A stretch of 64,000 bases of DNA from Piedraia hortae CBS 480.64 (taxonomy: Eukaryota): the NCBI GenBank assembly GCA_010093745.1, contig MU005976.1:1-64000 (forward strand). The letters run 5' to 3'. Shown piece after piece: positions 14,582-51,100 of this stretch (position 1 is its first letter; each line of letters opens with the position of its first letter). The notes below the pieces were generated by a model that saw only the letters and a program-made list of their open reading frames with translations, was not told where the DNA came from and did no database searches. A program made the position numbers and the translations under genes.

Positions 14582-14980
14582 CTACCAATAGTATCTTCCT
14601 CCATGCGGGTCGTATTCTTCAGAAGAACCTTGCTTGCACTTCTTGAGGACGTCATTTACCTCCTTGATATGGGGGTAAGGATTCCAAACGGGAGGCTCGT
14701 AGTTCTTGTTCTCGTTGTCCTCCTGCTGCTTCGCCAGTGCATACAGAGAAGTGATGCCCTTGTAAACGATTTCTTCCCCCCGGAGGAGGATCCTCCGGGC
14801 GAGTTGCCGCTGCCGTCGGCTTTATCGGTTGTGACTGCCTTGAAGGCTGAGCCTCCCTCGGGCTTGTAAGCGGAGGGTTTCGGCCCCTCGCCGGGCTTGG
14901 TGGTGTTGTTCTTTGAGAAGGGGTCGTTGGTCACCTCGCTGGCGCTTATAGGGACAAAGTTGTCGTTGTTGTTTTTACTG
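14582..14980 (-). pseudogene. YDPHGGxYYW small-protein family, copy 1 (frameshifted, no start codon seen)
   Basis: NNNDNFVPISASEVTNDPFSKNNTTKPG...SSG, then an extra base in the C6 run at 14776-14781, then EEIVYKGITSLYALAKQQEDNENKNYEPPVWNPYPHIKEVNDVLKKCKQGSSEEYDPHGGRYYW*. A (CAT)n tract lies where the ATG region should be. Confidence 0.8.
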
Positions 14981-15921
14981 ATGATGATGATGATGATGCA
15001 GTGGTTTGTGTTAGAGGATAAGTTCCGTTGGCCGAAAAAATTGATTGGGGGAAGCAACGTGAGAAAAGTGATACGGTATGGGGGTTGTCCACACGATTGA
15101 AAAGAATGCACTCATGGAAACCAATTTTGTTTTGAGATGACGGAAAATAACAACACGGCGCCGCACGATCTGCTCTATATCATAGGCATTCATAATTCCT
15201 GCAAATTTTTTACAAGAGATGCTGAAGAGCTGGAGAAGGAAAAATCTGAACGCCTCTTTCAGTAGCATTACATGAGTGGCCCCGAACGCAGTTCTCACGA
15301 CAAGACAGGCCCACAGTCACCAATCTTCCACCGCTCCCTCCCGGTGCATCGTTCGGCCAGAACACGATAATACTGTGTGCGTGCAGGAAAGGAAGCTACG
15401 TTGCCCAGAACTTTCTTCAGATACCGATATATTCTCTATCAAACAGAGGCTGTTACGGTAGGTTCAATAAGTCCCAACAATGAGGACAATCAGAACTGCT
15501 ATTTACTGGGAAGCTAGGATACTATAAACCAATCCAGAAGCGCCGTCCATACGCGTGTGGTAGCGAGCGTAGCTATGAATAACTAGCAGGGCGCGTCGGC
15601 GTATCAAATTCCCTGTGCGCTTAGGCGGCGCGGGTCGTCCCGCGCACACACATCCTCGCCGTAATAGAGACTGGGGAGCGGTACGCAAGAGCAGGCTTGC
15701 TGGGGGTTTGAACAAGGTCAAGCACCCGCTAAGGAGGCATCCAGACCGCAACTAGCCACTCAGCACTTCTATAAAACACTCAGCCCACGCACTCCCTCCG
15801 CCAACCATTGATAGAATAGTCAGGACACATTATCGAACATAAAACACAGCGATTCGTAAACTCCCTCTTCGATGCTACAGTCTACCCACCGCGTCATGCT
15901 ACAGACAAACCTATCTGGCGC

Positions 15922-16357
15922 CTACCAGTAGTATAACCCCCCGTGGGGGTCGTAATCTTTGCACTCGCCCTGTTTGCCCGCCTTCAGGGCATTGTTCACC
16001 TTCTTTACACGCGGAAACGGGTTCCAAATGGGTCGCTTATAATTGTCGGCCGGCTGGCCATGTTCTTTGTCTTCCTGTTTTTGGGCCAGTGCAATGCGGG
16101 ATGCAAAGCCTTCGTATATAATTTCTTCTCCGGAGGATGCATCGTCTTTTATGTCCGCATTATCATCGGCGTTGGGTTTGGATGTGGGGTCTATGTTAGC
16201 CTTGGTGTGGATAATCTGCGGTACATCTCCGGGCTTGATGGAGGTGTTGTCAGAGAACGAATTATTGGCCAGTTCGTTGGCCGCTGATACGGACGAAATT
16301 GTCATTGTTTTTGCCGTCGGAGGCAGCGGTAGGAGTGTTGAGAGTCATGGACACCAT
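15922..16357 (-). pseudogene. YDPHGGxYYW small-protein family, copy 2 (1-nt frameshift near 16282)
   Basis: MVSMTLNTPTAASDGKNNDNFVRIS, one extra G, then ANELANNSFSDNTSIKPG...SSGEEIIYEGFASRIALAQKQED...RPIWNPFPRVKKVNNALKAGKQGECKDYDPHGGLYYW*. An in-frame ATG at 16305 could still give a 127-aa product. Confidence 0.75.
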
Positions 16358-16594
16358 TGTTGTTGTTTTTGTTGTTGATATGGCAGTGGCTTGTGTTAGA
16401 GGGTAAGTTGTTGTGGCGGAAATAATGTCAGTGGAAAAGCTAGAGAGAGGGGGAACGTGGGCCGTATAAATTAGGTCCAGGTGGCCGCCCACATGATCTG
16501 GGAGCCCGCAGTTATAGCTAAATAGGTCAAAAGCTGGGCGAAGTGAATGAGGTCTGGAGGGTTGATCAGCTGGGCAGTTACGGGAAACACTGTT

Positions 16595-16713
16595 AGTTGG
16601 AGGATGTGTCACATGATGACCATGAACAACGTCCCCTGATGTATGCAGTATATATAACTATACAATTATTCACGTCTTAGTGTACTAACACCATCAGTTC
16701 GTTCCCTTTAACT
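16595..16713 (+). mobile_element. 119-bp element family F with AG...CT termini, copy 1
   Basis: AGTTGGAGG...CCTTTAACT; perfect 5-bp TSD CTGTT (16590-16594 and 16714-16718); colinear with 48945-49063. Confidence 0.85.
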
Positions 16714-17040
16714 CTGTTTGATTTGAGACGATGAACGAGAATATCACGGCAGAATACCGCACGGGCTACTTAATGAGCGCTTGTAACTCCAGTAAGTGAT
16801 GTCAATGGATTATACAAGATTAAATTCCTCATTTTGGCTTCCAGGAGCGATTTACTAGGTAAGTTGGACCCACAACAGCAAGGTTTGATTAAGATTCATC
16901 TGTGGTTTCTTGGCAAAAGAGCTTATTATCCAACGGCAATATACTTGGCCTCTACGACTAAGGATTGAGAGCAAGATTAAGCATCTTCTCCGACTTGAAG
17001 CGCTTTGCATATACACAAAGTTACTTCCACACAGACCTTT

Positions 17041-17345
17041 TGTCAAAAGGATGTGGCACCCACCATGACCAGAACTATAGATAGAAGTCGAAACTTCTCA
17101 GGGTTCTTACCTCTATAGAGGAAGTTTTCCCTGAGACGGGTCATTGTCTCGTTCATGCTTAAGGGCATGGTTCGCTGACGTTGTCCTGGCAAATGCGGTT
17201 AGACTGAGGTAGTGTGGGGGAGATTTCGAACCTTACCTCAGAGAGATGGACATCTACATCACACATTTTTCAGTGAAAGTTGAGTGGAAACTTTTGTCGT
17301 TGACATCCACTCCGCTCTAGTCCTCGGAGGTTCACCCCTCCGACA
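17041..17345 (+). mobile_element. Solo LTR family C, copy 3
   Basis: TGTCAAAAGG...CCTCCGACA; perfect TSD CCTTT. Confidence 0.93.
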
Positions 17346-18169
17346 CCTTTACATAACCCATACCGTTTTCTACTGCTCCCATCGAAGATGGAATATTGCC
17401 TGCTCATTGAACGGGGGAAAATGAATACCCTTCCCACAATTTACGCACGCGCCACAGCTGGCAGGAAAAATCCTTATAGCACCATATCACCCAGAATATC
17501 ACCGTGCATGATGATACCAGGCTACCCAGATGGTATGCTAAGCAAGCCATGATCCGCTGGAAATGGAATCGCCACAAACCTCAGCTTTGGCACCATATTC
17601 CCCAACCTCCCCCAACTCTTCGTTCTTCAAAACAACAACGGTCCTCCCATCCATGATATTGAACCCGCTCATTCGATCTGACACTTTCAATATCTAAACT
17701 TTAATGCTCTCAACAGCTTCAGGCTTGGAATGGGGGCCTCTTCATTTCGCCTTAATCTACAAGCCTGAGATGCATTTGTCGAATGCGTTTCAAGCAATGC
17801 ATGACCTCCGTAGATGTACGACTCTGCAGACAAACCCTCAACCTGACAGTCAATTAACATGGCGTTATGCTGTACAGAAAGACGACGTGTTCCAGAGCGA
17901 ATGACTTGATGACACCCAGAGTGCTGTCTGAACGACTATCGCTGAGGACGCGAGACTTTACGTACTCTTAACAATCAATGGGAAAGGTATATTGCTTGCG
18001 GCATATCTTGTGGACGTCGTGCACATACAACACAATACATACAGTGTTTTACTACCATCGATGCTAGTCCAACCAGTTTTACCTTGGCAAACAGTAAGCA
18101 TAACAAATGATTCATAGTCCAACTTCTATTCTACATCCTATGCAATTGCAGTCATATCTCTGTCAAAAA

Positions 18170-21100
18170 CTAAGTCCGCCTCCAAACGCCAAGCCAGCGA
18201 CGCTTTCCCGGCGACGAAGGCGAAGTGGGTGAGTTTGGCGGCGGAGCAGGACTATCCCTGTTTGGTGTCGTTTCCTTACTATTGGGGCCCGACTTGATGC
18301 CAACCTTTCCTGCCAACATTTCCATTCGAGCACGAGCAGGCGAACACTTGCCAGACGGAGGCGCGTCTGTTTCGCCATTAGGACTTGTCAACCTCGGTGA
18401 GTGTAAAGGTGATCGTGGACCAGATTCTCCGACATCAAAAGACTCCCGGCCAGTCTCTTCAGAAGGCGAAACGAGGCGCAGAGCTCGAGCTCTGTCAACA
18501 GGATGAGCGTGCGGAGACCTGGTTGGCGCCTCGCTAGAGACCATTCGGCTGTCTCGAGAACCGTCAAATAGTCCTGGGGCAGTCATCATGCCAGTATACT
18601 GAGCCACCGAGCTCATCGACCTGTATTCCAATTGAGGTCCAAAATTACCATAATTGTGGAACCCAGATCCGTGTGGGTACAAAGCAGAGTCAATACTGGT
18701 CATGCTGTTGAGACGTCCATCTCCCAAAGCGTCTCGGTCGGATGCAGCGTCGTTTTTCGAAGTGCCTTGGTCATGATAGCGACGAGCTTGGGCACTGAGA
18801 TCTTTGCTCTCTCCTTGGCCTTTGGTCGGTTCCTCTTGAGTCGCTTCAGCAGAAGTCAAACGCTTGGATATGGCGTTCTCGTGCTTCTTTCCCCAGGCGC
18901 CAAGGTTAGGAGTGATTTCATCAATGGAAGGGTCATCCGCTCTGGGGGACATTACAGCCATCTCGTTTGAAGGCGCGAGAATGGCCTGTTTCGCGGCATT
19001 AACTTGATCCTCCACAGTAATTTCAGACTGCCGTGAAGCCTTGGCATCGTCCCTCCCACTCGAGGTCTGAGTAGAACGTCTGTGCTGCTGTTCAGCGGAT
19101 TGAAAAAGACTGCTGGCCTGAGATCCCAGGACACTTCGGCCATGCGTTTGTACTTCTTTCAGCTTGACCAATGCCGCGCAATACCCCTTAATCCAGTGCC
19201 CGGATCGCTCCATGTCCGGCATCAACTGCATGAGCCCGCACTGAAAGCCTTCGAGATATTCCCGAGTTTTGTTTTGAGCAGTCGCTTGAGCCAGCTTGTG
19301 GCGATGAAACGACTCAATCGAAGAGGCCATGGACGGACCCAGTGGATTGGGTTGAGCTCCCGGTAGGATCCAGCCACGGCGTTTACTTTTGGGGCTCAAA
19401 TTATGCATCTCACGGTCAGGCGCCGAAGGAGCTCCGGACGCTTCCCTTTGAGGCACCGCCATCATAGGCTGTGGAGCAGAGACACCCAAGCCGCTAGCCT
19501 GTCTGCCAAGCGTCTGTCGAGAACTCTGAGACGCGATAGAGCGGCCACCAGCGCTACGATTAGCGTTGTCATGGGACTGTTCGTGATTTCCGGCCTCCAA
19601 AGGCTGTTGTTGCTGATAGTGCATATCATACCGGCGAATTGAATACTCCTGAGTATCGCGCGGGAAGAAATCCGCTGTTTGGAAGCTTGCGTTGCTAATG
19701 GCCGAATTCAACTTGATACTCTCTTGGCTGGCCCGTTTGGATTGAGAAGGGCTGACATCACGCTTGCTCGATGGTTCATCACCATTGGCAGGCTTGAGAG
19801 GGCTCGACGCACCAGTGTTGCGAGCTTCCTTCTTTGGAAGATAGACAGGGCTTTCGGGATTCAGAGCCGATTTGTGAACTTTAGAGTCAGGCGCCTTGAT
19901 GGGTATGGCATGGGATACATGACCTGCAGTGGGTGCCTTTTTCACAGTTGATGTTTGTGAATTGGCTAAATCAGCGTCTGTGGACTCAACTCCTGGAGCC
20001 GGTGCGCCGTAGTGCCCAGACCGAGGTAGAATGCCGGAGGCGTACATATCAGCCATTCCGTTTGGTGGAGGCGCAACCCATGGCTGTCCCATTGTGTCGT
20101 CAGCCACCGGTGGTGGAGCGTAGAAGGGCACATAGTAAGGGGGCGGTGCCATGTAAGGCGTAGCTGCCTGTACAAAGGGTGGCATGGCCGCATTGGGTGG
20201 GTTGACCGGCTGCCATGGTTGCTGAAAGGGGAGAACTCCATTCCGAGGTGGGGATGCGTTCGATGGGAGCCCGGCCGCCTGAGCCCACGTCGTCTGGCTC
20301 TTGTCCTTCAGGCTCTTTAAGGCCCTGCGGATACTGTCCATGCGGGTAACAAGCTCGCGGCGTTTGGTGTAAAGGGCATCTTTGGCGCTCTTGTTCATCG
20401 TGCGGCTGTGAATCGCCTCAGTCTTGTCAATCTCCTTCGATTCCGCCTCGAGTTTAGCATATTCCTGCTCAAGAGCCTTGATTTGAACGGATGGCGATGG
20501 CTCCAAGAGGTTTCCGTTGGGTGACTGTGAGCGTTGTTGATTGCCATTTGTCAAAGAGGCATTAGATGGGCCCGACTGCGTGATCTGGAGGTTTGGTGCG
20601 GGCAGGTACAGCCTGAGAGCACCGTCAACCTCCGTAAGAGGCATGATGGCACCACCAACAATCTGGCAAAGGCACCCATTGGTGTCTTGAGCAACGAATC
20701 CATTTTGCGTGGCCCTGGTCCATTGAGCCTTGCCCATGGGATGATTTGGAGCAAATTTGATGAGACCTCCATTGGCCTTGATGGCACTGTATCCATAGCG
20801 AGGATGGCAAAGGGGAGATTGTTCGCTGGGAACCACACGTCCTCCAGCAGTTACACGAACATGGGGAGGCGAACCGTGGGTTTGAACCAGAGATTCAATC
20901 TTTTTCCTTCGTAATGAAGGGGTTGGCGAGGGACGAAGGTTATCTGGTCCGGCCTGCACTGTTTGACCAGCCGGAACAAGATGGTCAACTGAATTCATCG
21001 GTTCTGGTGCCCGAAACAAAGACGATGGCGGACGACCTGAGCTCGCAGTCCTCATACCGCTGTTTTCCTTCCGAATACGCAAGGTGGATTGACGAGACTT

Positions 21101-21377
21101 GTTAGAGCGAGCAGCAAACGATCTTGCTCCACGTAGAACGTGTTCTGAAACGTCAGCATTAGGTCAGGGTCGGAGAGCAGGTATGTGTACCTTTGACAAT
21201 CTCCGCATCGTCACCGTCAAGTTCGTCGATGGTCTCGCTCAATCTGGGCTCTGACATCCTGCTCTTCAATTTTCGCAGCTCTTCGGCCGAATAAGTGCGT
21301 CGTGTTTGCATGTTTTTGCCGCCGACCGGACGACGGGGCATGTGGTTAGCGCTGGACTCAATGAGTGCTTCCAGCAT
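18170..21377 (-). CDS. Large low-complexity hypothetical protein (about 1050 aa), 2 exons, intron 21145-21190
   Basis: The 970-codon open frame joins in frame to the upstream exon (…AEIVK|EHVLRG…) through a 46-nt GT..AG intron with a CTAAT/CTGAC branch site. Contains a coiled-coil-like segment; no domain recognised. Confidence 0.8.
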
Positions 21378-21877
21378 CTTGAGGGATCAGAGCAAGTCTT
21401 TTGGGAGACCTGTGGTGGAGGGCAGTCGACAAAGGGTTGACGTCAAGTAAGGAAAAGGCGTGCTGTATCCAATGGGCAACTGATGAGAATTGCTTCGGAG
21501 GTCGAAGCAAGTGATGACAGTTCCGTCCGAGGTTGGAGATGGAGTAGTGAATCTGAGTACGAGGGATGAAGGCAGTGTGGACGAGAGAGAGAGGAGAAGT
21601 GATGGTCGAAGAGAAGTGGTGGAGAAGACAGAACGACAGACAAGATATAGTAAAAGAAGATGCGGGCCCACACTGGACACTAACAGGGGAAGTGCCGCTT
21701 GAGTGCATGAAGCAGGAGCGCCCGTTGCCTCGCTAAGCTTGATTAGCTGCTATCGATATGATAATCGAGTTAGCCACCTAGTCATCATAACCCCAGTCCA
21801 TCCACCAACGCCTGGCTAGCCATTAGTAATCCAACTATTGTAGGCAGTGCGATGAAAGCCACAGCAGTGCTACAATT

Positions 21878-26264: not shown

Positions 26265-26338
26265 GAAGTATCGCTGCCTGGGGTTCACAGAGCGAGAGCG
26301 TACTGTTGGCAAAGGTTTGTATTTCTGTTGATCATTGC

Positions 26339-27248
26339 ATGAGTTCTTCAGGTAGGCCGGCTCGACCTACCCATACGCCGCCGTCGGGACGACACCTCTC
26401 TTTGTCTCGTCACTCCACCCGAACACCAGTGGAGGAAAGAGTCGCCGCGGGATTCTGGCCCGATACCGGTCCACCAGACGAAGAGTATTCAGACTCAGAC
26501 GACGATCACCCCCCACTGGATACGCTCGGTCCGAAGATGGAGATTGACGAGAAGCCCCAGACGAGCTATGAAGTCAACGCGTCGGATGGGCAGACGTTCT
26601 CGGGGAAACCCGGCACGTTGTCCGGGTTCCTGACGCACGTGAAGTTGAAGGAACTCCTAGACAGTGATCTGGGTGAACGCCAGGATTAAATGCGCGTACA
26701 CGGCCAATCAGCTCCGGGGCTCGGCCCGGGAATGGTTCGTGCGTGCGCTGCCCGTGCGACCCCAGCTCCTGCAGCAGTGGAGCGTTCTGGAAGACGCTTT
26801 GGTAACCACGTTCGGCGAATCCGATGCAATCCGCCGGCAGCGTGATGAATACGCACTAGCTCACTTAAAGCAAACTTCGACCGTAACCCAGTTGGTGGCT
26901 CAATTGGAAGGCCTATGCGACACGCTGGGATGGGCCGAGGCAGCCAAACGCGGGTTGTTTGTCAATGCTCTTAAGGACCCGATACGCAAAGAAGTCCTAA
27001 AGGCGCCCCATGCGGGCTATGCCGAATTGAAGAGAATTGCGCAGACTGTCGAAGCTGCCCACGCATTGGTGGACGCCGGATCCACCGGAAGACGCACACG
27101 CCGTAGCAAGAAGTCAGGGAAACCCAAATGCCACCGTTGCCACAGACCGGGCCACGTACAGCGAGACTGCTACGCAAAGGCCACAGTGGAAGGCAAACCA
27201 ATCAACAGAAATACAAACCTTTGCCAACAGTACGCTCTCGCTCTGTGA
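26339..27248 (+). mobile_element. Ty3/gypsy-type gag (capsid plus CCHC nucleocapsid) with a 1-nt frameshift near 26686; no pol downstream
   Basis: TFSGKPGTLSGFL.., KCAYTANQLRGSAREW, LKQTSTVTQLVAQLEGL..LGW..LFVNALKDPIR and zinc knuckle CHRCHRPGHVQRDC. Confidence 0.85.
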
Positions 27249-28861
27249 ACCCTGCTACACCTCGCCCTGATAACAAAGACTGTACAAGGGAAAATCTTTT
27301 ATAGCAAGCACCCAAGGAGCATGATAAGAAGGACAATGGAGTAATGGAGTCGTATTTGATATTGTTTTGAACAAAGAAGCTACTTGGTATATGAGGTCGC
27401 TGATGAACAGCAGAGAATAATAATTCGAACAACTCAATCTTCAGAACGATTACGCTATGCACCAACTATCGTCCAACATCAAGCAATCTAGACTCGTTGG
27501 CAATGCCCGACACCTGTCAGGAGAGCGGCGCCAATCCGGTGAGGGACAAGACACCGAGATGGACGAGCTGCCGAGGCAAGAGGCCGTGAAACGGGGGCCC
27601 AGCGTGGCCTTCCTCCGCTTGTTTCGGCAATGATCGATGGTGTGATCAAGTTTCTGGCCGAACGTGACAGCTCACAGCAGCTGGCATCAGTGCTCCAGGA
27701 CTTCGCCAACGAACACCGGCGGGAGATGGCGGCAACTAAGGAGCTACTGGACAGGCCTGTGGGGGATACCTGCGTTACAGAAAATTATTGTTCGGCAATA
27801 CCCGGAGGGATATTTGGAGAGACATTGATTGGTAATGCCGGTGTTGTTTGTGGTTTGGCATCAGAGGTCTAGACGTTCGCCAGTCGCTCAGACCGGGTTG
27901 ATTTCTGGTTTTCTGCACTGTTCGTGTATTTAGTCTTGCCGTTTATACTGCCGGGCAGAGATTCGTTCGGCGTTCGTTGCTCGGTCCTTTGAGAATATCT
28001 ATCCTCTTGCCCGTCTACTTTGTCATTGGATCGTTCATCAATTCGGTTACAGTAATCCTCGCTCACACGAGAAAGAAGTTCCTGCTCCACCGACAGCTAT
28101 TTTGGTCAGTTAATGGGAATTCTTGCACGATTGTCCAACGTTTGCATAGACAACTCCGCCGACGTTCTCATTCTGATCGACTGAGCCTTGACGCCAATCT
28201 GAATTATTCCCTGGACCGCGACAGTTACAAATTCGAGCCGAGAAGAGATCGGCCAGCATGACAAATACTTTGCAGTTGGAAACTCAGTGCATATTAGAGA
28301 AGGATTGTAGATGCATGCTTAACTCCACCGGATCGCCAACCCTTTCTCCTGCTAAGCATCGGCCTCGGGTTGCCGTGTTGAGCCCCAGTACAGGATTCGG
28401 CTACCCGACATCGTACAAATAGAGATGTCGTTATTGAATATTGCTTTGTTAGCAACAACGATCAAGGTTGCATGATATCAGGTAGCTGTCGATTGAAGAA
28501 GTGAAGATTAGCTCAAGGGAGTAAGGTGTATGTGGGTGCTGATTCCAAAATACTGTGACCGGTAGGTCAGGCGAAAGATGGTTCTGAGGTCACGCCAGGA
28601 TGCAGGATGTCCGGGAGCGAGTCGGAAGACCATGCAATCTTGGCCATGCCCTACATGGCCTTCGTCTGGCCACGCAACCATAGACAAGGGGCCAACAACC
28701 TTGACGTCCAATAGTTTATGGACCAGAAACGCTTTGCCGAAGACAGAGCAGCTGTGGCAAAGTATAGGCTATAGACGATGACGAAAACCTGCATCAGGCT
28801 AGAGGGATCCGTTGCTATAAATCCGCCGTGCTGGCCCCTGATCAGCTTCATCCAAATCAAC

Positions 28862-35666: not shown

Positions 35667-38600
35667 CTAGTACGCGTCAGCTAACGGTGGATCATCTTTC
35701 CCCCACCACAGCAAACCCGGATCATCCAGGTCGTTTTCCAATTCATCGCCAGTATGCTCCTCTAGCCCAGAATATCCAACCCCCAAGCGAGGACGAAATC
35801 CTGATTTGCGGATCCAATCCTCGGGACAGCGACAATGTTGCTGAAGTTGTTCGACTTTGTCAAGCCACTCACGTTTGAATAATGTCACATAAAAGTGATT
35901 GAGATGTCGGAAGCGGATTACACCATTTCCCGCAGAAATGACTTCTTCCGCAGCGTATTGGTATGGCAGGCGGATAAGGTCACAGCCTTTGTATTGAATC
36001 CAGTCAGCTTCAGAGCTCCAAGGATGGTGGGTCAAAGGGTCGAGGAGTGGCTTTTCCATTGGAGTCTTTGGATACCGCGCTTTATACAGCTGCGTTTGTG
36101 GCTGTCCCTGGTCTGTTAAATTTTTGGGAGGGTTTCCAATTAGGGGCATTAGCTCAACAGGTTGGCCTATTGGCCAATACAGTTCGAAGCCCTGCGTTCC
36201 TGTCTCTACCCAGGTCCATACGGTTCTGTTCCAGTAGCCTGATATAATGGCCTTTCCTTGTGGTGAGAATCTGAGCATGGTGATGACTTTCAGTCCCAGT
36301 ATGATCAACTGCAACTTTCCAAACTCGGCGTCCCACACTCGCACGGCTTGGTCTGGCTTACCAAGCATGCACCTTGATACTGTTGCGATGGTGCGCCCGT
36401 CTGATGAAAACACATTATCCATGACTTTGAAGAACGGATCAGCGAATAGCTCAAGATACTGCTCGCATATTTCGACCGCATTGCCTCGCAAGGACACTGA
36501 CTTTTGGTTCCCACCTTTCGCGTCCCAAAGCCTCACATCGCCGGTAGCATCGCTTGATGCTACCGTGTCATCGACCGGTGAAACTGCGGCGGTGATTAGC
36601 TTCTCGACATGACCAGTGAAGATAGACATCTGTTCTCCTGATTTTGTGTTCCAAATTCTCACCGTGCAATCTTCAGAGCCCGACGCAATCATGTCGCCGT
36701 TCAAAGTGAATGCCAATGTACTTATTGTTGAAGTATGACCCTTCATAAGCGATATTTGTTTCCAGTTATGCGTGTCCCAGAGTCGCACGGAGGCATCATG
36801 CGAGCCCGTTGCCAGAAGTTGTCCATCAGGCGACATCTTGATAACTTTCACACTATCCGCGTGGCCCTCTAGCAATCTTCCTTCGGCTAGTAAGTTGCTC
36901 ATGTCGCGTACCTGCAAAGGTACCTCTTCCGTTCCAACAACCACGGTAGACTGATCGGGTAAAACTACCATGGCGGTAATTTCTGCCCCAATCATAGTGG
37001 TTTGGAAACGGGGTTCAATCCTTGCGTCCAAAACGCGCAGATCGCCGGCTTCGTTGCCCACCACCAGTTTTCTCCCACCAGACGACAATGCAAAAGCAGT
37101 GCAGCCATCAATGTCAATTTCAGAAGACACTTCCTCTTCGCCTGTCTCTGCGTTCAACAGGAAAAAGGGCTCGCAGATACCCGCCAAGGCCAATGTCTCG
37201 CCCTCTGGCGAAAAGGTGAATTGCAAGGCCGTATTCCCATCAAAAACCCATTCCTGTGACCAGGTTGACGTGTTCCACAAGCATATCGTGCCGCTCTCGC
37301 AGCCTGAAGCCAGCCGACTTCCATTTGGAGAGAATGCGAGACAGCTGATGTCGTCGGAATGTTCTTCCAAGCTTGCGACTTCATCTCCCGAGCTTGTAGA
37401 CCAGATTTTGACGGAGCAATCAGTCAGCGAGGATACCACTGTCCCACTATCTGGAGAGAACACTACTGGGGAGCCCGGACGTCTCTCTTTACTGATGTCG
37501 AGTTGTTTTGTTTTGGTCCTCAGATTGTGGAGTGTGATGACCCCCTGAGAGTCCACAGCGGCGAGTTGCGCGTCTGGTGAGATGCCACATATTTGACTTG
37601 AATCTTTCGATCTGTCGAATAGGACCTTCACCTCTTTGGTTAACATATTTATTATGAGTGCGCAGTCCAAGGAGCTCATACTCAGGTTTCGTCCATCGGG
37701 CAGAAATCTGAGCTCATGAATGTGGCTCCGACCATTTTTGACCCAGTAGAGCTCCGCGTCGGTATTCATATCGGTATCCCACAGACGCACGTTGCCGTTG
37801 TATAATCCTGCTGCTACTGTCTTATTGTCAGGCGATATGGCCACACAGGAAACACTATCACCATATCTTATTCTCTGTTGTAATGGGCCCCAATCATCAT
37901 GTCTAGAGAAGCACATATCCAGGTTTTGTTCAATCAAATGATTAAATCTAGCCCTGACAATGCTTTTTGATGGTGAACGAACTAGTGCAGCCAAATATGT
38001 TTGCAACGGGGTGGTGCTGACAAGATCCTGGAAGGCTGCGATCCAGCGGATTGCATCCTCTAGGAACGCTTTAAAGTCATGCGTTCGGTTGTCCTGCTGG
38101 ATCGTTAGCCACTATGGTATGTTGGAGCCATGTGCAGAGGGTAGCCTACCCAAACAGCATGCAGCCGCAGCTGGTTCACAATGCTAATTGCGTCCTTTAT
38201 TTTGCCAAGCCAGCTCATGCACTCTATCCAGTGGAGAAAGTGCCGCTTCAGAAACTCATCTACGTTCTCAAGCTCTATCAAGCCTGGATTGAGCTTGATC
38301 AAGTGGCTGCACCAGTTGCAAGCTGCATACCTGACTGCTTCCGAGATGTGCGAATCTATTTGATCACGGCTGATTCTTTTCCGCGATGTTCCGGGGCACA
38401 TTGGGCCGCATATTCCGCCTCCAACAACACCTTCGCTCAATCCATGCTGTAGAAAGCTACTACGGAGGAGCTCAAGACATCTTTCAAGCAGCACTCGATG
38501 CGTTTCTTTCTCATTGATCCGAAACTGAGCCTGGGCCTTGTCGTGGAGATTGACCAAACAATCCCGAAAAGAAAGATGGTATGTGGTGATTGGTTTGGAG

Positions 38601-40763
38601 TCCTCGATTGGCACCTGAATGACCGAATACAGCGGATCGAGGGCTTCTCTAACTTCAGCTGGCGAGCAGTCCAGTAACTCCGCAAGAGCTCGGAGAGAGA
38701 GCGGTTGGTTTAAGAGGATGAGCGGCTTGACGATGCTTTCAAACAGTGGCTCCCAGTGATAGTTCTTTTGGCCATCAGCATCAATGCTCGCATGCCTCAG
38801 TATGGGAAGGTACAATTGTTCCAATCGGGATGTCAAATTATCGGAGCGTTGAGTAAATAGATCCTGCAAACGTCCCTGGGGATTTGCAGTGTCAATGTAT
38901 CTGCAAATTGTTGATGCCACAATAAAAACTGGCTTGGACTGTTGTACCAATGCTTCAATATTTGTTTCACCAGGCCAGTCCTCCCCAAGGTTTGCAAGTC
39001 TCCGAACACTTGGACGGCCACGGATCTTGGCAAACTCTGCTATGAAAAACTTGCGCATGTCCTGTCCAATTGACATCTCTTGTGCATCATCCAAATCCAT
39101 GCGCGTACAAAGCGTGGAATCCATGGTATCGAATGTGTCTTCAATGATGCGATCCGGCCGACTCGTGACCAGAACCTGCAAATTGGTGGAATGTATTTTA
39201 ACCAAAGTGCCTAAAAGAGGCAAAAGCGTTTCAATCCCCTTGGCATCATCACACTCATCGAGTGAGTCAATCACAATGATAATACGCGTCCTGTTCACGC
39301 GACCTTGTGATATGGCTTCACAGGGAGCCTGCAGCAGGTACCGAAATTGGTAATCCATATTGGCCCCGGGAAGCTGCGAGTCCTCCCTGAGGGCATTTGC
39401 AATTCCTGTTGCCAGACTGGACATTGTATCAGCCAGTTGTCGGGCTACAGTGGGAACAAGATAAGCGATCCTTTCCAAATTTCCTCCGCCGCGTTTGAAG
39501 AAAAAGCTGGCGACTATGCATTTCTCGCCACCAACAATCTCCCCATCCAGCTTTCGTGCGACGGTACGAGCAATGGTAGTTTTTCCAGTCCCTGCTTTGC
39601 CTCTAAGCCAAAATATCTTGGGGTTGCCAAGACTGGCCGCCCATTGCACAATGTCCGCCAGAATATCAACACGTGTATCATTCAAACAGAAACTATCGCC
39701 CGCTTTGTATGTCGCCCCCCCAGCTACTTTTAGCTTTGAGAGGACCAATTCGAGGTTTACCAGATTAATCTTGTCTTCTACCTTCTTCACATCATCCTTG
39801 AGTTCATTTTCCAGTCCGCTGATTTGCTGTTGCAGTCCAATCCTCCACTCGCTCGTTTCGTCGTGGTCACAGTCGCGCAAGCGACCCTGCACTCTTTCAC
39901 AAAGCTTATCGCACCGTTGTTTGAATCCTGCAAAGTCGCTGTCACCCGCTAAAGCATTCCACAAGCGCTTGACAGAGCCCGTAGATTGTGCAAGAATGGC
40001 ACAAGCAGAGATGCGATAGATTTGGGCATAAAGCTCAACAATGTCTTCGCTCAATGTTTTGGACATTGGAGACGGCTTAAGCTTGCAGAACCAGTGATAG
40101 TAAACTCCCAAGAGTCGGCTGACATACAATACAGTGTCGAGTGCATCGACAAGTGCTTCTTGCTGTTCCTTATGTTTGGTGGCAATCTGGCGGTAGAGTA
40201 TCAGCTGAGGCATATGTATATAAGCGAATACTCCTTACCACGATGAGGGCATTTATTCCGGCCCAAACCCCTCCCAAGGTGGTGGACTGAATGCTTGCAA
40301 GGGCTTGCCCGGAGTCTTGGAAGCGGTCAAGCCTGATCAAGAAAAGCTGTGTCTTCTTAACCACAACATTTCGGTTATCCTCATAGAGTTTCTCAGTATA
40401 AAGAAGTGCTTTGGCTTTGTCCATTACAACGATCAAATCTTCGGTCCCATCGCTATCGTGGTCAAGTCTGGAGAGCAGCACGTTACATTCATCCTTGTTG
40501 AGCTTTTCGAGTGCTAGCTCCCTGAGGTGGCGCGGATTCCTGGCATCTTTGGGAGAGGACTGGACAGTCCGAGAAATCACCAACGCTGGACTTTCAGTTA
40601 CTTGGTTAGGTAGAGGAACAGGCAATAGATTCCCACTTCGCGAGGGGATCTGGCTGGGCTGCGAGGCATCCAATGACGGATCATCTTGCGCTGGATGCCG
40701 GCGGGAACGAATGGCCGACTTGGACCTTTTCAACCAACCACGAAAGGAACGTTCTTCTGGCAT
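35667..40763 (-). CDS. Fungal NLR-like NACHT-WD40 (NWD/HET-E-like STAND) protein, 3 exons (introns 40187-40238 and 38097-38149)
   Basis: P-loop GKAGTGKTT, ASFFFKRG, Walker B IIVIDSLDEC, VLVTSRP, HLSFRDCL, FLHWIECMS; repeated GH..V..SPDG..LASGS.D..VR.W WD40 units. Both introns are GT..AG and keep the frame. Confidence 0.93.
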
Positions 40764-40993
40764 TCCTAGAGTAAAATAGGTTCCTCACAGAACACAGCAT
40801 TAACATGAGGTCTTTTTCAGCCCTGCATGCAGGCTCAGCCACGAGGTTGTTGGCTGCATTGCAGTTGGTGCCGGGAAGAGGTTGGTAACCACACATGCAT
40901 CAAGAAATGCCATTTGAATTGACTACATATAACTTATGCCCTCGTGATATCTGTACATTAATATGTATCATCTGCGTGATGGTGTTGACGTTG

Positions 40994-41117
40994 TGTTGTG
41001 AATATGCGGTATATTACGCGCATTATTAGTAACCGTCGCTCGGCTCTCGACTTCACGCGTCAACTAGTTTTCCGTAGAGATTTGTATGCAGGTACACATC
41101 TGCTCACAATTATAATA
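40994..41117 (-). mobile_element. Solo LTR family A, copy 3 (124 bp), 230 bp upstream of the NLR start
   Basis: Perfect TSD CGTTG (40989-40993 and 41118-41122); 5' TG mutated to TA; identical to bases 1-81 over the shared part. Confidence 0.92.
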
Positions 41118-43996: not shown

Positions 43997-46147
43997 TTGC
44001 TGCGGGATTGCCTGGACGCCTGTACTATCTGGCACGCAGAAGACCACTGTCTACAGGCCCTGCACCTGCTCAGAAAGGTATTGCGCGAATACGGTGAAGG
44101 ACTACAAGTTTTCATGGTGGGGCGGGGTGGAGGGCGGAGAAATTATGAGGATTTAGCAGCTGAATATCCGCATTGGGAAGGCGGGGTGAGGTAATTAACG
44201 TCAGCGATGAGTCATCATCCCCCGTCTTCAACCGTGGCGCTCAACAGTTGGCCCCTGGTTTGTGACCAGCACACGCCACCGACATGTAAAAAATCTCTCC
44301 GCTGCATGGACACGCCTCGAAAAAGCACAGCCCCCAGTCACTCGGCGTGAGGCTGCGTACTCTACGGCCGTTGGCATTCCTGAACAAGAAAGCCCGACAG
44401 TTGTGTCGCAGTCGGTTGGGCCCTATTCAACGGGCGTTGAACCAGATCTCATGTCTTGCATTAATAAGTGGATACAGCGGCGAGGCGGTGCAACTGGGAC
44501 CTCCTGATTCTTGCAGTCTCCAGATTAATATACCCCACATCCATTTCATTGGACATGTGATGTGTCACCGACCTTCACTGATCACGACAAAGTCGTCTAT
44601 GAACGTAGTTCAATGAGAGGCTGCTCGCTCGGTGGATCTCCAGTCGGAACATAACGGAACTTGTTGAATTTATGCCGTTGGTGATCGTCTTCGAGTGTGG
44701 CTTCGCAAGCTTTGCATTTTGTATTTCCCCCAAGATTGGTTTCGAACTCCGCCGTCGTAGTTACAAAGCATCAGTTGCATGCGGCTCACCTTTAGTTGAT
44801 CTATCATCTCTTCCCCGCCCACACTTGCCAAGCATCAATCGCTTTGGGGAAACAGAGTTTCAGGCTACTAATGAAGCAGCTAGAGTATGTGGATACAATT
44901 GCCAAGCTCTTACCGTATCCAGTTTCTTGTCTCGAGCTCTCAATTCTCTCTCATCTGACGTGTTACTCCCCTGATGCTGTAAGGCTGTGTATCGCATGCC
45001 TGGAAATTGGGATACTGAAATTAGAAGGAGCTTCCTTCTGGTTCTAGCCGGCCTCTGAAATAAATAAAGGAACAGTCTTTTTTGACCTTGAATGGCGTGC
45101 ACCCAGTACAAATGAAATGTTTCTATATTGTACCTCGAGGCTGTCCGTTCATAGCCTTCGACGAATCATATAATTCGCCGGCGCCAAGCTAAAGATATGG
45201 CAAGAACACGGTTCTGGTGAGACAGCGTTCGGCTTATGTGTGGTATACGCTCAAGACTGACAACTGCAGCAGCTAAGCTGACATAGTCCTACAATGCGAT
45301 GAGGAGAATGTGTGAATCTTTATTCGCTGACGACGGCCACCTGTACACAACCGAAATCGATAGATTGCGACATCCATCTGCGACATCCATCTACCACTCA
45401 TGCGTTTCCAGAAGTGGCGAGGGACGAGAACATGATGACACAACTAAAACATTCGACATTAGTCATTGGTCAATTTCGACTTGAAGATTTCAACACCAAA
45501 TCACGTGCGGCCCCCCGGTCCACTTGGTTCGGGCCGCCAGTATCACACACTGAAAAGCTATCGTGCGAAAGTCAACGACTATCACTGCTGATATGCGTAA
45601 ATTCACAGAACTCGCGCAAAAAGCGAATCAAACTCGATGAATACCAAAGTTTACCGGAATGAATTGGATTATGTTCCGTCGAGTTGAAAATTCGACCGCC
45701 TTAGTTGTCGCATACCGTAGCTTTCACTTTTGTTGTGGTCAATCATGATCATGGTGGGTTTAGCTTGCAAGCATAACATTTCACAATAACTGCCCTCATG
45801 AAAAGATGATTTGTATTTGAGAAGTTAAGACTGAAGATATCTTATTCCTTTGAGGACAGTATTGTGGCATTGCACCTCACCGAATTCTAAACATGCATTA
45901 CTTTTCCAAGATGGCTTGCCTTGGATTAGTGATATGGAAAAAGCTAGTTGACATTACATTCAATGGATCGACCACAGGTACTGCAGGCTGTTCGCGGCCG
46001 CAGCATTGGTGCACAAACACTTTTGATGGCCTACAATCTCTCCGCCAGACAGATCAACAATTTTCAGGTGGTCAAGTGATGTATTTGGGGGTTGTGTACT
46101 GGTGTTGGCCACGGAAAAACGTTTGGAGAATAGTAACCATGCTAGTC

Positions 46148-47659
46148 CTAATTCTTATTACCGCGGCCACGAGCACTGCCACGTCCACGGCCGATAATAC
46201 CCCTTTGACGGACGGGAATTCTTAACGCCTGAGTGGTGGCATCATGCCGAGTGAGTGGCGTTCGGGCACGCTGAGGCAACGCGACAATCTCATGACTGCG
46301 CAGGCGTTGATGAGACTGGTGACCTGGATCCTCCCAAACTCCCGTTGTAAAAAAACGGGCTTCAGCGAGGAGGAGGGCATTGGCGTTCGATTTGCGCTTC
46401 TTCCTCGCGGGTTGGCCGCCTGGGCTGAGATCACTTCTTTGGGACTTTCGCTTGTTCGAAATGCCATCGATATCACCCGTTTTACCAGATTTCTTGGCGG
46501 ACGCCGGATCATTCTCCGCTCCGTCGCTAGACACACGGACATCGCTCAATTTGGTAGTAACTGTTTCCATATTGATAGGATATCCTCCCGAAACGGCATG
46601 GCCGATGGCATTGGGAAGTGTTTCCTGGCAATCATGCTTCGGATTAGATGACTGGACCTTGATGGAGTTAGCAGGTTCCTTGTTGCTAGAGACAATGCCA
46701 GTACAACCGATAGAAGTTTCGCCGTGGCCGGTACCCTTGTCATCGAGTGTTTTGGCGTCTTCGATCGCAGCTGCGTTGATCGTAGTCTTTTTTAAGGTCG
46801 TACCGGTAGACGTGTTGTCTTTAAGCCCAGTGTCCTTGGACGTAGTGTCATGAGAAGAGTTCTTCGGCGACTTGCCCTCATCAGGCACGCCGTTATTACC
46901 GGCATCCTGCCTACTGGAGCCCATACCAACATCCATTGTCATGTAATTGTCACCATTCTCATTTTGCGTAGCCTTCAAGCCATCAGTTCCCTCATCAACA
47001 CCACCATCGACATTATTGGCATCAAGCTGGTGAGTAACAAGTACATCATCGGCCTGCAAGCTTTCAATGCATTGTTCAGACGCTTCGACTTCGTCGTAAG
47101 TCTTGCCACTCTCAATCTCGTCATTTCCCTTAATAGCCGTATGTTCATGGCCCTTCGTGTCATCAGGAGCATAAGTATTATGGGCGTTCGCGCCAGTCCG
47201 GACACCAACAAAGACATGTTCACCTTCCGTAGGAACACAAGTATGTGTCTCGGCGGGTCCATTCTTGTCAGTCGTAGCACTGCCCTTCTCCACAACTTTC
47301 GAAGTATTCCGATTGGACACGTGATTTTGAAAAGCTGATAGCAGATAAGGGCCGACAGGCATGGAGGCAGGCAAACATAAATTAGCAGGCAGAGGCTGCG
47401 TCGGCGACTTCATCGCATTTTCGACGTTGGTAACAAGGTCTTTATCGGCCTGGGCAATCTTAGCAGCCGTGCCATCGTCGGCGCCCGTGCTGGCATGCTT
47501 AGGGGAAGAAGCAGAGGCTTGACCGTCCGAAAAAGCGCCATCAAAACCCCAGGTAGGGCTGCCTAAGAGGGTGGCCTGGGATTTGATTTCTTTGTGCACA
47601 GTGACGGGCGTGCCTGGCTCAGCCATGGCGTCCATGGTGAAAGAGGTAGGATAGGACAT
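46148..47659 (-). CDS. Hypothetical low-complexity (T/D/G/N-rich) protein, 503 aa, with a basic NLS-like C-terminus
   Basis: Long intact ORF preceded by a pyrimidine-rich leader; KRKSQR and RKKRKS clusters. No domain recognised. Confidence 0.65.
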   Translation of the reverse strand: MSYPTSFTMDAMAEPGTPVTVHKEIKSQATLLGSPTWGFDGAFSDGQASASSPKHASTGADDGTAAKIAQADKDLVTNVENAMKSPTQPLPANLCLPASMPVGPYLLSAFQNHVSNRNTSKVVEKGSATTDKNGPAETHTCVPTEGEHVFVGVRTGANAHNTYAPDDTKGHEHTAIKGNDEIESGKTYDEVEASEQCIESLQADDVLVTHQLDANNVDGGVDEGTDGLKATQNENGDNYMTMDVGMGSSRQDAGNNGVPDEGKSPKNSSHDTTSKDTGLKDNTSTGTTLKKTTINAAAIEDAKTLDDKGTGHGETSIGCTGIVSSNKEPANSIKVQSSNPKHDCQETLPNAIGHAVSGGYPINMETVTTKLSDVRVSSDGAENDPASAKKSGKTGDIDGISNKRKSQRSDLSPGGQPARKKRKSNANALLLAEARFFTTGVWEDPGHQSHQRLRSHEIVALPQRARTPLTRHDATTQALRIPVRQRGIIGRGRGSARGRGNKN

Positions 47660-48571
47660 GATAACGAAGGGAGTTTAATGAGTGTGTGTAATGAAAGGAG
47701 GGTGTGTGTAAAGAGAAAAATGGGAGGTGGGCGAGGCGGGAGGAGAAAAGACTGTGATGCAAATTTCTCTGAAAGGTGGAGACCCTGTGCGAGCAACGGC
47801 TTATACCGTAGGCCCGTTGGCACGTGATGCACCCTGTGTTTTGGGAATGTATCTATTTAGGTTGTTGGATAGACATAGGGATATGGTATAGGAGACCTGG
47901 GAGAAATTTTGAGACATTTCGGGGGTTTCGCTATCGATTTCTGATTGCATCGTGTTTGTTAGTAGACAGTGGCAGTTCCCGGCTTTGATGGGACAATGAC
48001 CCAAAAGCTAAGAGATAAGAATACACCTTGAACAAGGTGTACTGGATGATGGGATTGTTTATTATCTGGCTGATCTCTCCACAAAGGCTCTCTGTGTAGC
48101 CTGTGCTGCGTACCAAAAGGGCCAAACGCGTGTGTACTTACTTTATACTATCAAAACCACGTAAGCAGAATGTAGGATTGATTGTAAGAAAATTTGATAT
48201 GGCAAGCCTTAGTTCCTTCCAAACGGGGTTAATCAAGCAGATGGTCAGTAGCTCCATCCACAACCTCATCGAGAGGCCCAGAAGGGCAGTAGGCAAGAGG
48301 TATGAGTAGAGAGGAAGTTCCAGTTTCATACAGCTATGCATGGTTGTCTCTTTTGTAATCCCGAGATGAAAGACGTTTCCCGTAATTTATATTTACCAGA
48401 GAGTTCCAAATCGTGAAAGCATCGAAACAATGCGCTACTGATGTTAGCGGCTTCCCTGGTCATATGGACAACCACACAAACCTCTTTCGCCCGGCCCATC
48501 TTTTAACCTCCCTTTTATTCGCCCCTGATACTTATCCACTAACACAATCCACCGCAACATTGAAAACATCC

Positions 48572-48901
48572 ATGGCACCCATGTTTCTGTCCTCGTCTTC
48601 CGGCAGCAACAACTTTTTCCGGATGAGCACAAGCGAAATGGCAAACGACCCGTTCTCCAACAACACCGCCACCAAGCCTGGCGAAGAGTCTAATGTTTTC
48701 CACCCAACGTCCAGCGAAGGCTCAACCTTCAGGTCCGACACCGAAAATAGAACGCAAGCAAACGGTGACTCTCCATCTTTCGGTGAAGAAATTCAATACA
48801 ACCACCTGGTGTCCAGTATAGCTCTCGCGGCGGTCATGGCCAGGAAGGGCAGGAACGACGGAAACGCCTCGCCTGTGCGACCCAAGCGACGCAAGGTATA
48901 G
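48572..48901 (+). CDS. YDPHGGxYYW family, copy 3: intact 109-aa ORF with a different C-terminus
   Basis: MAPMFLSSSSGSNNFFRMSTSEMANDPFSNNTATKPGE...SFGEEIQY..SSIALA aligns with copies 1 and 2; the 5' flank (ACTTATCCACTAACACAATCCAC) is also homologous. Ends in PVRPKRRKV. Confidence 0.65.
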   Translation: MAPMFLSSSSGSNNFFRMSTSEMANDPFSNNTATKPGEESNVFHPTSSEGSTFRSDTENRTQANGDSPSFGEEIQYNHLVSSIALAAVMARKGRNDGNASPVRPKRRKV

Positions 48902-48944
48902 GAAGATATCGAGTCCCCTCAGCCACAGCCGCAGCCGCAGAACC

Positions 48945-49063
48945 AGTTGAAGGATGTGTCACGTGATGACCATGATCAACGTCCCCTCATATATGCAGTA
49001 TATACAACTATACCATTATTCGCGTCTTAGTGTACTCACACTACCAGTTCGGTCCCTTCAACT
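48945..49063 (+). mobile_element. 119-bp element family F, copy 2
   Basis: Perfect 9-bp inverted ends AGTTGAAGG...CCTTCAACT; flanks GAACC/GAGCC (5-bp TSD with one transition). Confidence 0.85.
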
Positions 49064-50059
49064 GAGCCGAAATCCGTATCCCCATGTCAAGAAGGTCGCT
49101 CCCGTGCGGTAGCTGAGTGGATTATGACCATCAGGAAAGCCGCGACTACTGATAGATTGGGTTTCAAGAGGTGCAGGTTGTTTTTGCCTGAAGGATGCTG
49201 CTGTAGGTAGAGATGTGGTGCTGGAGACGGACTCTATAGTTTGCTGCATATTATGTCGTTGGATGTGCCATAGTATCTGAGAGGCCAAGTGCTCCGTAGA
49301 CATTGAGTTATACTTGAAAGGGCATTTGAGCTACAACACAGTCGTAGACCCTATATCTACCTAAAGGGTATGCCAACTGATAACCAGTGGTCGGACAGAA
49401 CTCATCATTGATTGGAAGTTGATAAGTTATTTTACAACTGATGATAATGATGACTGTTCTTGTCAGAGGGGAAGGAAAGTACCCATATCTCAGTAGAGAG
49501 CAAAGTGAATATATCTAGATGAATGATGTTCTGCGAGGAAACACTCCTGACTATATACATGAGAGGACTTTGTCCTCAAATTCTTTCATTCCATAATCTC
49601 CTTTATTTGGAGACGTATCCCGTCTTAACAACCCTTTCGCAAGCGCCAGGCTTATAATCGCTGACGCGGTGCTGGCACCGTACTTGTTTCTGCATTAGTG
49701 GCAATGCTTGCGCAGTCTCAATCGCTGACGGCTACGAAGCTGGTAGTCCTGTATTCTACTCGTACAGTTACTGCCAATGTCGTCGGTGGCATGGGTATTT
49801 CCATCGATCCTGATGCTGCTAAGGTAGGGACAGGGCATGACAGCCAAGGTAATGGCGCTGGAGTAACAGTGGCAGTTGCAGGGACAGCGATAGGGCCAAG
49901 GTAAACCCAGAGACTGTTGGCATGAAGTCTCGTTGCTGTGAGTATACGATGCCACTACGCGACACCTCTTACACCAGCGGCTGTACCCTAGGTTTTGTCC
50001 TCACAGAGGTTTTCCTTAGGATCATGTCACATGCGACATGATGAATGCGCCCTGCTACT

Positions 50060-50727
50060 TGTAGAGATTTAGGCTCCCGTGGGTGAAAGTGCGCAGCGAC
50101 CCGTAGAGGACGGAGCGATAGACGGAATCAGGGACAGGACAGATGTAGATGTATATGAGTTGTCAGAAGGATGTGGCACCCACCATTACCAGAACTATAG
50201 ATAGAAGTCGAAACTTCTCAGGGTTTTTACCTCTATCGAGGAAGTTTTCCCTGAGACGGGTCATTGTCTCGTTCATGCTTAAGGGCATGGTTCGCTGACG
50301 TTGTCCTGGCAAATGCGGTTAGTCTGAGGTAGTGTGGGAGAGGTTTCGAACCTCACCTAGAGATAGACATCTACATTTCACCTTTTTCAGTAAAAGTTGA
50401 GTGAAAACTTTTGTCGTTGATATCCACTCCACTCTAGTCCTCGGAGGTTCACCCCTCCGACATGAGTCCATACCAGTGTCGATATGACAATGTGAATGAC
50501 TCTCTATCTCTATGAGGGGACGTCAGAATGAAAATTCTGTACAGGTGGGCCGGTGACGTCACGTCGTACACTAGCAGGGCGCATTCACCATGTCACATAT
50601 GACATGACCCTGAGGGAAAACCTCTGTGAGGGAAAAACCTAGGGTGCAGTTGGTAGTGTAGGAGGTATCGCTGGCTTGCTATGCAAGTGCCCCGCATACG
50701 CGCTAGCGGCGATGCTTAAATCCAGCA
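50060..50727 (+). mobile_element. LTR family D, nested in B and itself split by C
   Basis: TGTAGAGATT...TCCAGCA; homologous to 2413-2820; TSD degenerate, so the right boundary is uncertain by a few bases. Confidence 0.8.
50161..50462 (+). mobile_element. Solo LTR family C, copy 4, nested in D
   Basis: TGTCAGAAGG...CCTCCGACA; perfect TSD TGAGT; the empty site TATGAGTCAATACC is visible in the D copy near 2517-2530. Confidence 0.94.
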
Positions 50728-50963
50728 CTGTTTGAGGTGAGTCATGGACTAAGACTTCAAGCTGACGGTCTTACTGCATGTATGACCACTTGTTTACGGT
50801 CATACGATTGTTGACTCTTCATACGAGGCTACGCACGGGCCTTCCAGCCCAGAATATATTCTCTGATGTCCCCTCGTAGATACACTTGCATTCAATTTTA
50901 CACACATCTCTACTCTCCATCAATCGCTCTCATTCGCACATACCATCTGTTCATTCCTCACAA

Positions 50964-51100
50964 GAGCCCTACTTACACTATTTGAGTGCGACGTTTGCCT
51001 CTTTAACATGGGGGTAGGGATTTCAAATGGGAGGCTCATGGTTCTCGTTTTCTTTGTCCTCCTATTGCTTCGCCAACGCATACCTCGAAGCGACTGTGGC
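50964..51100 (-). pseudogene. YDPHGGxYYW family, copy 4: C-terminal fragment with four stops
   Basis: VASRYALAKQ*EDKENENHEPPI*NPYPHVKEANVALK*CK*GS, truncated by LTR B. Confidence 0.8.

Follow-up and report, generated by a model that had tools for sequence, protein, structure and literature searches.

Multigene families that evolve by birth and death provide a general concept with which diverged gene copies can be compared. Among more specific systems, hydrophilins are defined by two thresholds (Gly >6%, mean hydropathy < -1), wtf-type poison-antidote drivers are multi-pass membrane proteins, and the proteasome binders that carry a HbYX motif include Rpt5, Blm10/PA200 and PI31. The motif is described as a C-terminal hydrophobic-Tyr-X tripeptide (PMC10743564). 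Published work gives Piedraia hortae the fewest genes among 101 Dothideomycetes (PMC7082219).

In this fungus, we analyzed a stretch of 64,000 nucleotides of contig C20 (the window) for which a four-copy small-protein gene family had been predicted. The four homologous loci are present close to where they had been placed, but a fifth copy, a fragment, lies outside the window (G000:C20:164.5 kb), and all five loci (5/5) are on contig C20. Copies match each other in tblastn with E-values from 1e-24 to 3e-9 and reach profile scores of 77-200 bits, whereas nothing unrelated anywhere on the contig (287,431 bases) scores above 5 bits. No locus beyond these five was found by an exhaustive profile scan of the contig or by genome-wide searches elsewhere, which scored best candidates only, so that the number of loci outside C20 is a lower bound. 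The copies have N-terminal, middle and C-terminal blocks in common, and copies 1 and 2 end in the aromatic motif YDPHGGxYYW followed by a stop, both as the original prediction had it. None of copies 1-5 encodes a full-length protein. The coding remnants in the window and their leaders are:

14582..14991, minus strand: copy 1, coding remnant that retains the three conserved blocks and the aromatic end (tblastn, contig X1 record 3)
14992..15100, minus strand: upstream leader of copy 1, DNA resembling the leaders of copies 2 and 3 (no codon periodicity)
15922..16357, minus strand: copy 2, the most complete copy, 144 codons if read through (X1 record 5, X2 record 13)
16358..16500, minus strand: upstream leader of copy 2, pyrimidine-rich and then with an A-rich start context (DNA comparison)
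48572..48901, plus strand: copy 3, open frame of 109 codons with N-terminal and middle blocks and a basic C-terminal stretch (tblastn, codon analysis)
48902..48944, plus strand: copy 3 remnant beyond the first stop; contains a short hexamer repeat (sequence)
49064..49155, plus strand: decayed C-terminal block of copy 3 (shuffle test, nhmmer)
50953..51093, minus strand: copy 4, internal fragment of 46 codons (tblastn, profile)

The loci are probably five old duplicates on one contig, long held under purifying selection and now all broken or shortened, whose protein acted as a disordered intracellular binder via its C-terminal block. Because no copy encodes the full-length protein, the family is likely species-restricted and on its way out, that is, a taxonomically restricted gene family likely being lost. 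Like birth-and-death families, it consists of local duplicates with old divergence and several pseudogenes; here, however, there are no recent births and possibly no full-length survivor. The orphan genes of the filamentous ascomycete Pyronema confluens (PMC3778014) are alike in encoding a short protein, in having no homologue outside the genome and perhaps in a weak expression signal, whereas here five paralogues form a family under measurable constraint, none of them full-length. Since one genome of the lineage was searched, "orphan" and "lost" apply to this assembly only.

Relatives outside the genome were sought with single sequences or a 7-row profile, and none was found in protein, family, structure, viral or metagenome searches; the claim that the family belongs to no recognised one is supported. 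Pattern matches were confirmed in 0/104 and 0/106 cases in the metagenome scans and in 0/8 cases in the viral scan. Several candidates were set aside. P0003-P0005 owe their E-values (9e-6 to 5e-4) to four summed repeats in the low-complexity linker and are long repeat proteins of bacterial type; L018 and L019 have only an 8-residue seed in common with the query, and their E-values count 2 candidates; F1-ATPase (E 2.2) and SecE (E 0.057) are chance matches. Structure neighbours from the Atlas were disregarded, the underlying models having a pLDDT of 0.27-0.30. We met no account of the family in the literature, in searches that were not aimed at its motifs, and absence from print is not claimed.

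The proposal that a protein of about 140 aa, its variable linker bordered by conserved blocks, was in the past held under purifying selection is supported. Our own GY94 fit gave an omega of 0.17 overall (kappa 2.9, p 2e-21 vs omega 1), with 0.07-0.15 across the blocks, 0.07 in the C-terminal block, which is the most constrained part, and 0.52 in the linker; the alignment was protein-guided and treated stops as missing data, so that omega is biased downward, in copy 4 more than in any other. Pairwise pN/pS lies between 0.21 and 0.80 in all pairs with enough codons (9/9). When DNA alone is aligned, third positions collect the most mismatches in 4/6 coding comparisons (p 3e-5 to 0.012) and in 0/4 flank comparisons; in the two coding comparisons that involve copy 3 the excess is not significant (p 0.15, 0.52). 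Between copies, synonymous divergence approaches saturation (pS 0.5-0.97), which means that there were no recent births, only losses, and the idea that the family is "turning over rapidly" is not supported. The original prediction had named dN/dS near 1 together with the lack of an intact copy as grounds against itself: dN/dS is not near 1, and an intact full-length copy was not found. The family may have arisen by local tandem or segmental duplication, with purifying selection acting over most of the history of the copies, which would have been lost when a lineage whose gene set is reduced no longer needed their function.

Copies 1 and 2 had each been credited with a single extra base. This is correct for copy 2, where the extra base at 16282 is the sole lesion in 144 codons, whereas the shift in copy 1 amounts to +2 (or -1) and sits among the six consecutive G at 14776-14781. 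One internal shift in each copy, in copy 1 within a homopolymer, is what would be expected if the frameshifts were assembly errors, or were bypassed by programmed frameshifting or hidden introns, and copies 1 and 2 were intact. We consider this scarcely credible. Contigs assembled independently from run X1, which may be the source run, show 0 differences and 0 gaps against both copies and reproduce both frameshifts. The extra base of copy 2 is present in contigs of two studies (X1, X2), possibly of one strain, and the X2 contig is unspliced across the lesion. Neither the site nor the direction of the shift is conserved: copy 2 has +1 near codon 25, whereas the +2/-1 shift of copy 1 lies about 50 codons further along. 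Copy 1 additionally lacks an in-frame ATG. Upstream of the ATGs, codon periodicity is absent in 3/3 leader comparisons, and the leader of copy 1 is therefore read as non-coding. An intron ending near the start, considered for a branch-point-like word in the leaders, was rejected, as no common splice acceptor or canonical donor was seen.

Copy 3 had been taken to end at 48901; in fact its decayed C-terminal half runs to 49155, beyond a 119-bp insertion. This C-terminal block has a 17-nt deletion relative to copy 1 and two further stops, and its identity is supported by shuffling (0/500 shuffles matched the alignment score) and by nhmmer (E 4e-4). Counted from the ATG at 48464, the frame of copy 3 comprises 145 codons. 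Copy 4 is homologous, as predicted, but one of the 4 stop codons in its 46 codons falls inside the motif that it was said to share. Nested repeats cut its 3' end. Its 5' half was not found (93/100 shuffles scored as high), and the 3' end, which falls in a repeat, was judged doubtful (12/300 shuffles as high).

The open frames of copy 3 (109 codons) and copy 2 (127 codons) mean that one of them may still live. Copy 2 yields 31 codons from its first ATG and 127 codons from an out-of-phase ATG at 16305 (P0002), and both this frame and copy 3, which keeps the N-terminal half only, may still give shortened products. On their terminal branches, copies 2 and 3 reject an omega of 1 (0.12, p 0.018 vs 1, and 0.05, p 3e-5), so their death is either very recent or has not happened; the estimate for copy 1 (15.75), being unstable, was left out. 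In copy 3, the 4 later lesions all lie within 45 codons behind the first stop, against 109 open codons before it (p 0.007, post hoc), and its basic end resembles a nuclear localisation signal; its frame is possibly a live truncated gene. A 161-base contig of depth 3 covers the 5' part of copy 2 (n=1), from a run, X2, that is only guessed to be RNA. A family still alive, through a copy 3 that shed its C-terminal module and acquired a basic nuclear-targeting end, or through a copy 2 that is intact elsewhere or made from its 127-codon frame, nevertheless seems unlikely to us: copy 3 is without the most constrained block and lacks significant codon periodicity in DNA-only alignments, two out-of-frame ATGs precede the 127-codon start of copy 2 in a frame that overlaps it, and the extra base recurs in both studies, though perhaps from one strain.

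The repeat-rich setting that had been noted for the copies is real. Short dispersed repeats make up 15-27% of the two islands holding copies vs 0.8% of the gene-dense middle; island-wide indices are outside the RIP range. The elements next to the copies are:

15461..15668, no strand assigned: short dispersed repeat separating copies 1 and 2
16595..16713, no strand assigned: 119-bp element, second occurrence, lying upstream of copy 2 (sequence match)
48945..49063, no strand assigned: 119-bp dispersed element, inserted in copy 3 (flanks, frame check)
49914..50951, no strand assigned: nested short dispersed repeats separating copies 3 and 4

The 119-bp element has short terminal inverted repeats, a 5-bp target duplication (one mismatch at copy 3) and at least 41 matches genome-wide. 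Given such islands, the copies could be imagined as what is left of a transposon's accessory ORF or of a virus that had integrated, which is highly improbable. True repeats here span dozens of contigs, whereas all copies are on one; their synonymous divergence is near saturation, no common termini were seen, none of 84 frames scanned had a Pfam match tying the copies to a transposon gene, and the viral searches gave no relative. Copy 5, moreover, is flanked by housekeeping-type genes. The mobile short repeats would have landed in and beside dead copies.

The encoded protein is hydrophilic throughout (GRAVY -0.7 to -1.25; 0-2 Cys). The short products of copies 2 and 3 are letter-for-letter identical to Atlas entries, which shows prediction only, and the Atlas models have a pLDDT of 0.27 and 0.30. 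Composition and these low-confidence models suggest a disordered protein, and the conservation pattern is consistent with action via short linear motifs; the intracellular protein may grip a partner through its conserved C-terminal block. Features of small secreted effectors were not seen in the translations, which have polar N-termini and 0-2 Cys. Unlike a wtf-type driver, the protein is strongly hydrophilic and no multi-pass membrane protein. With hydrophilins and fungal dehydrin-like proteins it shares small size, hydrophilicity and a Gly content of 6-10% in copies 1, 2 and 5, but it differs by strongly conserved aromatic/proline blocks, the absence of tandem repeat units and the lack of a Pfam match. 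Copies 1 and 5 pass both hydrophilin thresholds, copy 2 stands at -0.93 and 6.2%, and copies 3 and 4 do not pass.

The C-terminal end invites a further comparison. Like the HbYX binders, copies 1 and 2 carry a hydrophobic-Tyr-X tripeptide directly before the stop, in line with the published definition (PMC10743564). Traces of the same end are seen in copies 3 and 5, the strongest constraint falls on this block, and among 963 stop-ended frames with 60 or more codons in the examined DNA, just 7 share such an ending. The protein could then be a ligand of the 20S proteasome, similar to PI31 or Blm10, that docks in the alpha-ring pocket. We regard this as very unlikely, since the pattern comprises three residues and was picked after the sequence was seen, and Pfam and PDB searches revealed no resemblance in sequence or domains to PI31, Blm10 or Rpt subunits. 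Equally far-fetched is its extension to lineage-specific disordered 20S regulators, in which the HbYX end would dock the alpha ring, copy 2 would be functional and copy 3 would be a nuclear, tail-less competitor for an N-terminal partner. Should the tripeptide bind the proteasome, the outcome would be a novel means of tuning the 20S core, through a fungal HbYX mini-regulator that stands alone and has no relatives.

As a family probably being lost, the five copies offer a small, clear example of a whole orphan family vanishing in a fungus whose gene set has shrunk, which adds a case and not a concept; it would gain in importance if copy 2 were intact in wild isolates. The locus had also been put forward as a candidate "undescribed system", for which we see no sign of multiple parts: no gene accompanies the copies as a partner, and no copy is full-length. 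Rfam and tRNA scans of the window gave 0 matches. A neighbouring gene has its nearest named relative in Oleoguttula.

Sequence comparison among the copies bore out the four homologous loci that the original prediction had placed in the window, and genome searches with five different query pieces found a fifth locus further along contig C20 (MU005976.1), whose first 64,000 bases make up the window. These searches, whose counts are lower bounds, found no family locus on contigs other than C20; the assembly comprises 16.9 Mb in 132 contigs. We then have the following copies:

14582–14991, minus strand: copy 1, with a +2/−1 frame offset within six G at 14776–14781 and no in-frame ATG
16357–15922, minus strand: copy 2, which carries one extra base at 16282 and whose ATG has A-rich surroundings
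from 48572, plus strand: copy 3, whose open frame of 109 codons, or 145 from an upstream ATG, spans the N-terminal and middle blocks and stops at 48899
50953–51093, minus strand: copy 4, an internal fragment of 46 codons with 4 stops
C20:164,502–164,875, minus strand: copy 5, with its 5′ end missing and several deletions that break the frame

The profile search proposed in the original prediction was run on C20 without filtering, at both the protein and the DNA level, over its full 287,431 bases, and recovered the five family loci and no others, with 5 bits as the top unrelated protein score. A transposon or viral origin of the family fits poorly, as true repeats here occur across many contigs and the family loci do not.

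The protein had been assigned to no known family, and this held in protein, Pfam, PHROGs, NCBIfam, PDB, ESM Atlas, viral and metagenome searches. Among proteins of similar length, 1 of 10 candidates was confirmed and is the window's own product, while a profile search of longer proteins confirmed 0 of 7,999. Four matches were obtained among 1.84 billion representative proteins; one is the self match and the other three were rejected as spurious. No family in Pfam, PHROGs or NCBIfam passed the cut-off, PDB gave nothing below E 2, ESM Atlas gave no usable feature match, and viral and metagenome searches gave no credible locus. Short, fast-evolving orthologues in related fungi may have escaped; within this lineage, the six-frame search covered this one genome. 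The family is real but of a familiar kind. As context rather than evidence, the relevant passages on orphan genes of another filamentous ascomycete describe them as short and often upregulated in sexual development (PMC3778014).

To measure selection, pN/pS between copies was computed with frame breaks and stops masked, and was below 1 in all 9 copy pairs (range 0.21–0.80). Identity between copies was highest at second codon positions, then first, then third, and DNA-only alignments showed a third-position excess in 4/6 coding comparisons versus 0/4 flank comparisons. A GY94 fit on a fixed tree gave an omega of 0.17 overall (p 2e-21 against omega 1), with 0.15 for the N-terminal block, 0.52 for the linker (p 0.053), 0.12 for the middle block and 0.07 for the C-terminal block. 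The dN/dS among copies, suggested earlier as a check, is thus well under 1, in agreement with the suggestion of past purifying selection on the protein. Synonymous sites between copies are near saturation, which points to old duplications. On the terminal branches, omega 1 was rejected for copies 2 and 3 and not for copies 1 and 5; the low value of copy 4 is an artefact from masking its stops. Together, the overall constraint and this terminal-branch pattern indicate that the family genes were functional through most of their history and were broken late.

The main rival, which we consider unlikely, is that copy 3, copy 2 or both survive as a truncated gene. Behind the stop of copy 3, the ancestral C-terminal half can be traced as far as 49155 (0/500 shuffles), in a remnant carrying a 119-bp insertion, a 17-nt deletion and two further stops. 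All 4 later lesions fall in the 45 codons past the first stop and none in the preceding 109 (p 0.007, post hoc), as a surviving gene would have it, but the open frame lacks the C-terminal block, the most conserved one. Copy 2 has just one lesion. It encodes 31 codons from its first ATG and 127 codons opened by an out-of-phase ATG at 16305; this long frame is identical to P0002, the sole database match to the family, but is overlapped and shadowed by an upstream frame.

A single extra base had been claimed for both copies 1 and 2, which is correct for copy 2 and not for copy 1. Programmed frameshifting, which would keep both copies readable, fails because the shifts differ in position and sign. 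Contigs from X1, a DNA sequencing run, matched both copies with 0 differences and 0 gaps; since X1 may be the source run of the assembly, this rules out a slip in the assembly better than it does a mutation particular to the strain. In X2, a run from a separate study that is RNA only by guess, a 161-base contig of depth 3 matched 16229–16389, including the extra base of copy 2.

Copy 4 differs from copy 1 by 4 stops versus 11 other amino-acid changes, more stops than expected (p 0.001–0.07, depending on the number of changes assigned to copy 4), and has T at 4/9 CpA sites versus 2/24 other C (p 0.03). Its stops possibly reflect one round of RIP leaked from adjoining repeats.

The family product has about 140 residues, is acidic and very hydrophilic, and contains 0–2 cysteines; no hydrophobic leader was found in the translated copies, and ESM Atlas models have very low confidence. 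A disordered intracellular protein that binds partners via linear motifs would be expected to have short constrained blocks set apart by a free linker, and the family protein was probably of this sort. The last three residues of the most constrained part, the C-terminal block, lie directly before the stop and form a hydrophobic-Tyr-X tripeptide, an ending found in 7/963 stop-ended frames of the DNA analysed. The passages of PMC10743564 on this pattern describe it as docking proteasome activators onto the 20S alpha ring. That the family tripeptide would dock on the 20S proteasome is highly improbable, the pattern having been picked after the fact.

The passages of PMC7082219 on Piedraia hortae present it as a member of the Capnodiales that colonises hair and has the lowest gene count among 101 Dothideomycetes. 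Fungal genes in the window are long and intron-poor, and include Mre11, TAF10, DUF92, SNARE, a RING protein, a NACHT-WD40 gene, a kinase and an LRR protein; for the DUF92 gene, the sole close relative with a name comes from Oleoguttula. The family sits within two gene-poor islands, at 1–18 kb and 47.7–55.3 kb, where short dispersed repeats account for 15% and 20% of the bases, respectively, and for 27% around copies 1 and 2, versus 0.8% between the islands (lower bounds, from the loci analysed). An NLR-like NACHT plus WD40 gene in three frames (35667–40784, minus strand) is located between the islands. A SET-domain fragment at 13315–13827 (Pfam E 2e-8) runs into a 367-bp dispersed repeat at 13785–14151 and looks like a decayed gene copy. 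One repeat occurs at both ends of C20 (window 1–89 and L017:9957–10000, at the far end) and at 40987–41117 (41 kb); the contig ends are thus repeat breaks, and the family could extend into an adjoining contig. A frame at L017:7638–8138, with no Pfam match, resembles a hAT-type transposase fragment.

Short repeats at 13785–14151, 15461–15668 and 17040–17348 have contig depths in the thousands in X1 and X2, unique DNA contigs in X1 having 13–16, and are of very high copy number; they also abound in X2, which is RNA only by guess. Two further elements were characterised:

48945–49063 and 16595–16713: 119-bp element with at least 41 matches across many contigs
26661–27248, plus strand: gag and zinc-knuckle frame of a retrotransposon, within 26281–27252

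The 119-bp element has terminal inverted repeats of about 11 bp and target duplications of 5 bp in most of the 14 copies for which flanks were available. It is either a MITE whose duplications are unusual in length or else a solo LTR that is very short. The gag frame is flanked by two perfect 52-bp inverted repeats, has relatives on contigs C12, C5, C35 and C25 (70–76% identical), and its 52-bp repeat is matched in both orientations on C35. It is odd for a gag gene to be enclosed by inverted repeats instead of direct ones.
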